Assembly (NCBI GenBank): GCA_951406725.2
Contig: OX597821.1
Coordinates: 110,112,001 to 110,176,000, forward strand
Direction: 5' to 3'
From: Octopus vulgaris
Taxonomy: Eukaryota
DNA: 64,000 nt
Part shown: positions 28,528-28,563 of the stretch, piece after piece
Layout: each line of letters opens with the position of its first letter
Numbering within the stretch: position 1 is the stretch's first letter
Made by a program: the position numbers and the translations under genes
Notes under the pieces: generated by a model
What the model was told of the DNA's origin: nothing
Database searches by the model: none
What the model saw: the letters and a program-made list of their open reading frames with translations, nothing else

Positions 28528-28563
28528 CAGTACCGGTTTCAGTCATTGAGACTTTTTCAACTG
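28528..28563 (-). ncRNA. Minimal hammerhead, U3:A8 core variant
   Basis: cag-TTGAAAA-AGTC-tcaat-GACT-GAAA-ccggt-A-ctg. Confidence 0.65.

Follow-up and report, generated by a model that had tools for sequence, protein, structure and literature searches.

The window, a 64,000-nucleotide stretch of Octopus vulgaris DNA (contig OX597821.1, positions 110,112,001 to 110,176,000 of the forward strand), is set in a 2.8-Gb, microsatellite-rich genome, and a repeat search of it was dominated by microsatellites. A minimal type-I hammerhead motif of a family designated A (site A) was located on the minus strand at 28528..28563, with its elements in the order CAG, UUGAAAA, AGUC/GACU, GAAA, CCGG, UA and CUG. 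The UUGAAAA core with paired stems that the first-pass annotation had described here is present: U3 is at 28560 and A8 at 28555, stem I (CAG/CUG, 3 bp) and stem II (AGUC/GACU, 4 bp, of the R10.1-U11.1 type, with GAAA) are both paired, the stem III half is the palindrome ACCGGU running from A15.1 to U16.1 (28537-28532), A17 is at 28531, and the predicted cut falls between 28531 and 28530. The motif is carried by a 225-nt, 5'-truncated pseudo-LTR (pLTR) fragment of a Penelope-like element (PLE) at 28466..28690 (-), which ends in (TA)n without the optional 3' tail and is 92-96% identical (blast) to the pLTRs of long copies with reverse transcriptase (RT) and GIY-YIG domains (L073, L074, L075 and L079). 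Directly 3' of this insertion, at 28300-28460(-), is a fragment whose translation resembles the zinc-knuckle region of a restriction-like-endonuclease LINE.

A second motif (site B, family B) was found at 60301..60337 (-), in the order CUA, UUGAAAA, G, GUUGU/GCAAC, GAAA, CUU, U and UAG. The annotation had reported the same core again with different stems, and this was also confirmed, U3 (60334) and A8 (60329) being accompanied by a 3-bp stem I (CUA/UAG), an extra G, a 5-bp stem II with G10.1-C11.1, and U17 (60304). The window copy has C at position 15.2 where the family has A, and its AAUU palindrome is thereby broken (ACUU). Site B lies in the main arm, with tail, of a shortened family-B pLTR (60112..60383 (-), 89.6% identical to L261), and a short inverted arm of the same pLTR follows at 60396..60471 (+), the two forming a PLE-type inverted insertion in (TA)n. 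Classification of site B as a MITE was rejected, as most copies have no inverted arm and run into a PLE endonuclease ORF. The single window copies of families A and B are probably inert debris.

Other hammerhead motifs were present in the window. The motif of family C at 40503..40553 (-) has G3 (40546) and C8 (40541), a 7-bp stem I, the palindrome AAUAUU and U17; G3:C8 was observed in 33/37 family-C copies, most of which were chosen by similarity to the window copy, and no link between this family and an ORF was found. The G10.1-C11.1 pair is kept in family C as in family B. Canonical C3:G8 cores occur as a decayed inverted pair of hammerhead-like CUGAAGA motifs with stem II and GAAA (approximately 62815..62935, starting at 62843(-) and 62902(+)) and as a hammerhead-like CUGAUGA motif with the ACCGGU palindrome and a decayed stem I (approximately 13365..13428 (-), at 13419(-)). 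The claim that three of the four Watson-Crick 3:8 types occur in one window therefore holds, with U:A at sites A and B, G:C at 40503-40553(-), and C:G at 62902(+), 62843(-) and 13419(-). A descriptor that left positions 3 and 8 free gave two matches in the window, site B and the G:C site, versus nine in 100 block shuffles; site A was missed because it has no G10.1. An Rfam scan of the window returned no hammerhead among the best 150 of 573 matches, which were microRNA models on microsatellites. The window also contains a GIY-YIG endonuclease fragment of another PLE family (33316-33609(-), 36% identical to family A), downstream of which no hammerhead was found, and, at 56329-56805, a stretch skewed towards G and A in which 9-nt units are arrayed.

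Family A was searched genome-wide with a pattern in which positions 3, 7 and 8 and the next base were free, and 857 exact matches were obtained (0 in the reversed control). U3:A8 was present in 807/857 copies and C3:G8 in 1/857, so that a family consensus of CUGAAGA with independent decay at the two positions, the outcome against which the annotation had proposed to test its observation, was not what was found. Twenty-six copies departed from U3 (11 C, 10 A, 5 G) and 26 from A8 (19 G, 5 U, 2 C), while both positions were changed in two copies versus 0.79 expected (p=0.18), which is chance level. At 28560 and 28555 themselves, four public runs showed no difference reaching at least 5% of contig depth. 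For family B, 2,392 exact matches were obtained (reversed control 0), and U3:A8 was counted manually in 91 of the first 100 listed. When family-B loci were picked by the endonuclease protein alone (n=30), the hammerhead was reached in 21, the other nine having no hammerhead region in reach, and all 21 readable copies had U3 and A8. U3:A8 is thus the normal core of families A and B and not a product of decay.

In L073-L079, an ORF encoding RVT_1 (E=1.6e-9) and GIY-YIG (E=2.3e-5) domains precedes the family-A motif by ca. 500-800 nt. A linker of the CX2-5CxxC type, looked for as a mark of the Neptune or Nematis clade, lies before its GIY-YIG; the protein tree described below included no reference elements. 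Family A is an EN+ PLE, with the RT followed by a C-terminal GIY-YIG and the hammerhead in the 3' pLTR. The family-B hammerhead is mostly 500-700 nt downstream of its own GIY-YIG ORF (665 aa in L295), for which GIY-YIG was recognised with E=2.8e-5 and RVT_1 only weakly (E=0.006, below the cut-off). Family-A and family-B proteins are 24-28% identical over three local alignments only, and the two sites accordingly belong, as had been proposed, to different families, which are distinct PLEs. Copies of both are 5'-truncated, often inverted, with or without a tail of 30-60 nt, and inserted in (TA)n; 5'-truncated and inverted pLTR insertions with an optional tail and microsatellite targets are described for PLEs (PMC8557442). 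PLE ORF matches in L044 and L087 adjoin families B and C and do not belong to them. Many shortened copies of families B and C start 7-25 nt upstream of the hammerhead core and leave the motif whole, and these start points possibly mark an RT stop or a transcript start just 5' of stem I.

Two subfamilies of family A were distinguished. In the younger one, U3:A8 was found in 35/35 arms picked by similarity and in 12/12 readable arms picked by N17. The older one holds minor U3:G8 and C3 lineages, C3:A8 among them, and the only C3:G8 copy. Its U3:G8 lineage is inherited, being present in both arms and at several loci, and occurs together with C3 copies (L062, L067, L069, L071, L072, L063, L065 and L066); at L062, one arm has U3:A8 and the other C3:G8. 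The U3:G8 and C3 copies are possible intermediates of a swap of the 3:8 pair. A further U3:A8 hammerhead was seen in a PLE with 63% identity to family A, listed with other U3:A8 loci (L184/L299:6318(+), L300:6571(-), L127:2805(+) and L051/L145), among which were two singletons and an eight-copy family with N7=U and C17.

The 3:8 pair was compared across families in an unbiased sample of 120 evenly spaced 10-kb stretches (1.2 Mb). A strict descriptor gave 14 matches in this sample versus 26 in 10 shuffles (2.6 per shuffle) and none in the reversed sequence, and the 3:8 pair was Watson-Crick in 12/14 matches versus 5/26 shuffled ones (p=1e-4, the matches not being independent). Clustering of hammerhead matches from ca. 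1.9 Mb of sequence with positions 3 and 8 masked yielded 14 recurrent clusters. Eleven of these were judged by eye to be hammerhead families, one with a weak stem I, and comprised seven C:G, three U:A and one G:C; the 3:8 pair was Watson-Crick in 11/11 (p=8e-4 by permutation, with relatedness left out of account), and wherever position 3 was not C, the complementary base stood at position 8. Three clusters without stems I and III, all non-Watson-Crick at 3:8, were set aside by eye: A:C (n=4), T:T (n=2, resembling a transposase start) and C:A (n=2, antisense of a C:G family); if these are counted, 11/14 are Watson-Crick. No A3:U8 family was found in the ca. 1.9 Mb, and the sole A:U match (L256) was rejected as AT-rich, non-palindromic and unrepeated. 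The 3:8 covariation raised in the annotation is thus seen between families and is not seen within family A. On a protein tree of 10 rows, the distribution of U:A needed two changes, and placing its carriers in one clade was rejected (p-AU 0.012); the tree is unrooted, family B is a long branch, five rows have no known 3:8 state, and the two C:G states come from one copy each, one of them decayed. Two separate gains of U:A are therefore suggested tentatively.

Folding of the single motifs gave weak z-scores (-0.95 for family A and 0.08 for family B), and thus folding by itself lends no support to either motif. In the favoured fold of family A, U3 pairs with A17 and lengthens stem I (-6.1 vs -3.8 kcal/mol), which resembles the inhibitory, inactive C3-G17 trap form described in PMC3884650. 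Pairing of two copies through ACCGGU was favourable, with a cofold MFE of -19.5 versus -6.5 for the monomer and -17.7 kcal/mol for a dimer model with a common stem III and two stems II. Around 10.1-11.1, family-A copies have either R10.1-U11.1 and no additional base, or G-C plus a U insertion; the 10.1-11.1 pair proper is A-U, G-U or a mismatch and not G-C. Unusual pairs at this position, even U-U, are described as tolerated by hammerheads (Perreault 2011, PMC3088659). A two-sided change in stem II in L032/L033 represents one duplicated locus.

The novelty that the first-pass annotation had implied for U3:A8 did not stand, as this pair has already been published for hammerheads of the bacterial/phage type and of PLEs (PMC3088659, PMC4209133). 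Perreault et al. (2011) reported several natural ribozymes in which C3-G8 is replaced by U3-A8 through covariation, with activity of such pairs in vitro; natural G3-C8, the state of family C here, goes without mention in the accessible portion of that report (PMC3088659). Cervera & de la Pena (2014) described U3-A8 covariation in the minimal hammerheads of PLEs, with ca. 1,300 matches in Schistosoma mansoni, whose Cercyon elements carry this variant (PMC4209133). The motifs found here are like those of Cercyon in being type-I hammerheads in pLTRs with a short stem I, a loopless palindromic stem III, opposite-strand pairs and U3-A8, and family B also shares the extra base before stem II; they differ in host and PLE lineages and, for family A, in A17 and R10.1-U11.1 (PMC4209133). 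The hammerhead of the Anolis Poseidon element (PAc) likewise resides in a PLE pLTR, and its two RT start sites give an optional tail such as is seen in families A and B; unlike these families, PAc has the canonical C3:G8 core, and a C3G/G8C swap partly rescues its activity (Frangieh et al. 2024, PMC11167929). U3:A8 by itself is thus a known and ordinary variant, and families A and B are new PLE families for it. Studies by Przybilski & Hammann (2007) and Lunse et al. (2017) reportedly may bear on G3:C8 and on rates.

Since the function of PLE hammerheads has been called unclear (PMC8557442) and animal PLE minimal hammerheads cleave poorly in vitro (PMC4209133), marks of cleavage in the genome are of interest. 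Family-A copies that keep the sequence after the predicted cut and do not have A17 were searched for, position 17 alone being probed, and 30 of the 33 matches were examined. Fourteen were point changes with an intact core, and the remaining 16, at 14 loci, were junctions in which other sequence is joined to the family-A sequence after the cut. The partner was U6 snRNA (Rfam RF00026) in L302 and L309. At two loci, L305 (1500-1570(-)) and L310/L311 (G000:C5:35699533; C6:112178050), it was the 5' half of another hammerhead ending in its own GUC, from a family with a C-C-G-A core start and an intact relative in L003; these copies would represent heterologous ligation of one ribozyme RNA to another, as read from their sequences. 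SINE RNA was joined in L313 and L315/316, tRNA-like, in sense orientation and shortened within its body; ARAGORN found no tRNA in these partners. L301 carries family A's own ORF sequence at the cut. The other seven junctions consisted of two short deletions, two inversion junctions, one microhomology, one decayed arm and one without assignment. Junction copies amount to ca. 2% of family A, as would be expected if the main template were uncut RNA.

A pattern anchored on U6, in which the U6 end could be separated by 0-25 nt from the seven bases that follow the cut, yielded seven matches at six loci, and in 7/7 five T's were followed by position 1.1 with no upstream pLTR bases. Together with L302, eight U6 junctions at seven loci were thus obtained, from the younger and the older subfamily, with no inserted bases in 8/8; they go back to at least two independent events and probably more. 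Family A extended over 63-65 nt in the five U6-junction regions that were fetched, and 5/7 U6 loci belong to the older subfamily. The first 100 of 239 U6 3' ends included five junctions at the family-A cut and, by eye, none at other pLTR positions, downstream offsets included. Eight U6 regions outside family A were also fetched, of which one is at a hammerhead cut, one is not U6, one is a SINE, one is LINE-like, one is a microsatellite and three are without assignment. The first of these (L338, G000:C4:31799330-31799980, compared with L239) serves as a positive control: it is an inverted insertion, each arm of which has U6 joined precisely where a canonical C3:G8 hammerhead would be cut, after N17. 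As to U6 in general, about half of the 100 listed ends, or more, led within a few bases into what resemble SINE 5' starts, and seven U6 copies clustered at C1:139.42 Mb look like a true gene array.

The same junction was present in both arms of the inverted insertions L310/311, L315/316 and L334, and the junction was therefore likely already in the RNA template. At 9/10 junction loci checked (3 kb), the upstream half of family A was absent within 1.5 kb, the exception being L304 with an intact second arm; the junctions are thus not insertions into a standing pLTR. Among the 239 U6 ends, the first 100 included no junction with family B, which has ca. 2.8 times more copies than family A. Seven of its 46 non-U17 copies were examined and contained no chimera, in a search that was blind to U-ending partners, and no cut-site junctions of family C were seen in the same samples. 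Contig ends at the cut formed no cluster of loose ends among the rows listed (152 and 71 further rows), which is uninformative.

Based on these results, we hold with good confidence that each site is a minimal type-I hammerhead motif located in a pLTR, that the two PLE families concerned are distant from each other and have U3:A8 as their normal core, and that low-frequency cleavage of family-A RNA by its own motif, after A17, likely takes place in the germ line. What is observed directly is that the motifs belong to families, that U3:A8 is fixed in these, that they are linked to RT and GIY-YIG ORFs, and that U6 and the 5' halves of other hammerheads are fused in the genome to the base after A17 of family A. 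Cleavage in the living animal is likely, judging from the junction sequences; the chimeras are without the core, and we thus infer the U3:A8 state of the RNA that was cut from its family. It was hypothesised that the chimeras arise as described below. The 3:8 pair would be kept as a structural element, and two RNA copies would pair through the palindromic stem III, probably aided by the PLE protein as for the Anolis element. Cleavage after A17 would leave a 5'-OH on the family-A RNA, and an RtcB-type ligase could join this end to RNAs with a 2',3'-cyclic phosphate end. The PLE enzyme, starting 60-95 nt downstream, would then copy the chimera into (TA)n, while uncut RNA would be the source of most insertions. 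Hammerhead cleavage leaves a 5'-OH and a 2',3'-cyclic phosphate; since the 5' half of any hammerhead thus has a cyclic-phosphate end, such halves would also be ligation partners. Taken together, cleavage after A17, ligation, and RT from internal start sites would explain which RNAs are joined, why the joint is precise to the base and why it is found in both arms.

A precedent for such chimeras is provided by the U6/LINE-1 pseudogenes (Moldovan et al. 2019, PMC6789731), in which U-tract U6 is likewise joined to 5'-shortened retroelement RNA and retrotransposed. Mature U6 is described there as having five U's with a cyclic phosphate, and RtcB as joining it to 5'-OH RNA before retrotransposition; by analogy, RtcB, the cyclic phosphate and the 5'-OH may have these roles in the U6 chimeras of family A. 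In the U6/LINE-1 case, some nuclease generates the 5'-OH at positions that vary, whereas here the site is fixed, coincides with the hammerhead cut and is in a PLE, and 5' halves of other hammerheads are also partners (PMC6789731). For the min-HHR of PMC4209133, the portion of the report available gives weak activity in vitro and no in vivo evidence, whereas genomic junctions at the cut are found here; for PAc, that of PMC11167929 gives no RNA-seq reads ending at the cut site. A literature search found no report of U6 joined at a PLE hammerhead cut. New in this work are the association between cut-site junctions and a U3:A8 core, which is non-canonical, and the fusions of one hammerhead to another. 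Lunse et al. (2017) may already cover such core variants.

The junctions at position 1.1 could also have come from RT stalling with template switching, or from a protein ribonuclease cutting after UA, without any action of the ribozyme. The cut site, where the palindrome has its 3' edge and stem I begins, could make a polymerase pause; elsewhere in the genome, U6 is joined to SINE 5' ends and LINE interiors; and SINE and own-ORF RNA, which have no known cyclic-phosphate end, are also joined at 1.1 (L313, L315 and L301). An origin of this kind is nevertheless hard to reconcile with the single-base precision of 8/8 U6 junctions and with hammerhead-hammerhead fusions that are exact on both sides, identical junctions in both arms would require two identical switches, and the canonical hammerhead obeys the same rule. 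Many other UA steps are also present in the region. We therefore consider this origin improbable. Cleavage by a different set of copies is a separate matter: U3:A8 might be a dead or nearly dead core that drifted on successful elements, with the chimeras derived from rare C3:G8 source copies. The one C3:G8 copy and the small C3:A8 and U3:G8 lineages of the older subfamily fit this proposal, as do the absence of cut marks of family B in the samples examined and the report that PAc cleavage, which requires protein, is not needed for insertion in vitro (PMC11167929). However, the chimeras L302, L309, L305 and L310 have the diagnostic bases of the younger subfamily, all of whose scored arms are U3:A8, and families departing from C3 always have the complementary base at 8, which makes this proposal very unlikely. 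The caveat in the annotation that both U3:A8 cores could be chance double transitions in decayed C3:G8 copies had in its favour that C>T and G>A are common changes; it is refuted by the counts for families A (807/857, with C3:G8 in 1/857) and B (21/21), and its probability is negligible.

Family-A cleavage thus remains the preferred explanation, and fusions at the exact cut offer a genomic read-out of cleavage that is scorable per core variant in any assembly. By this read-out, cleavage likely persists in a core that has U3:A8 and the A17 trap and does not have a G10.1-C11.1 pair, and the hammerhead-to-hammerhead fusions point to module swapping between ribozyme elements. A wider proposal, towards which we lean slightly, is that a U3:A8 PLE hammerhead cuts in the germ line and that its cut end may be ligated to any cyclic-phosphate RNA, 5' halves from hammerhead elements unrelated to it among them. 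Hammerhead cut sites would in that case serve as points of RNA-level recombination that put retroelement, U6 and SINE RNAs onto a mobilised PLE pLTR, and U3:A8 would have arisen at least twice in the PLEs of this genome, the U3:G8 lineages being viable steps in between. A search with the usual CUGANGA descriptors would overlook families A, B and C alike, of which A and B alone have more than 3,200 copies. Family-A pLTR sequence spanning the cut region was also observed in public runs X16 and X17 of two other organisms (organisms B and C).
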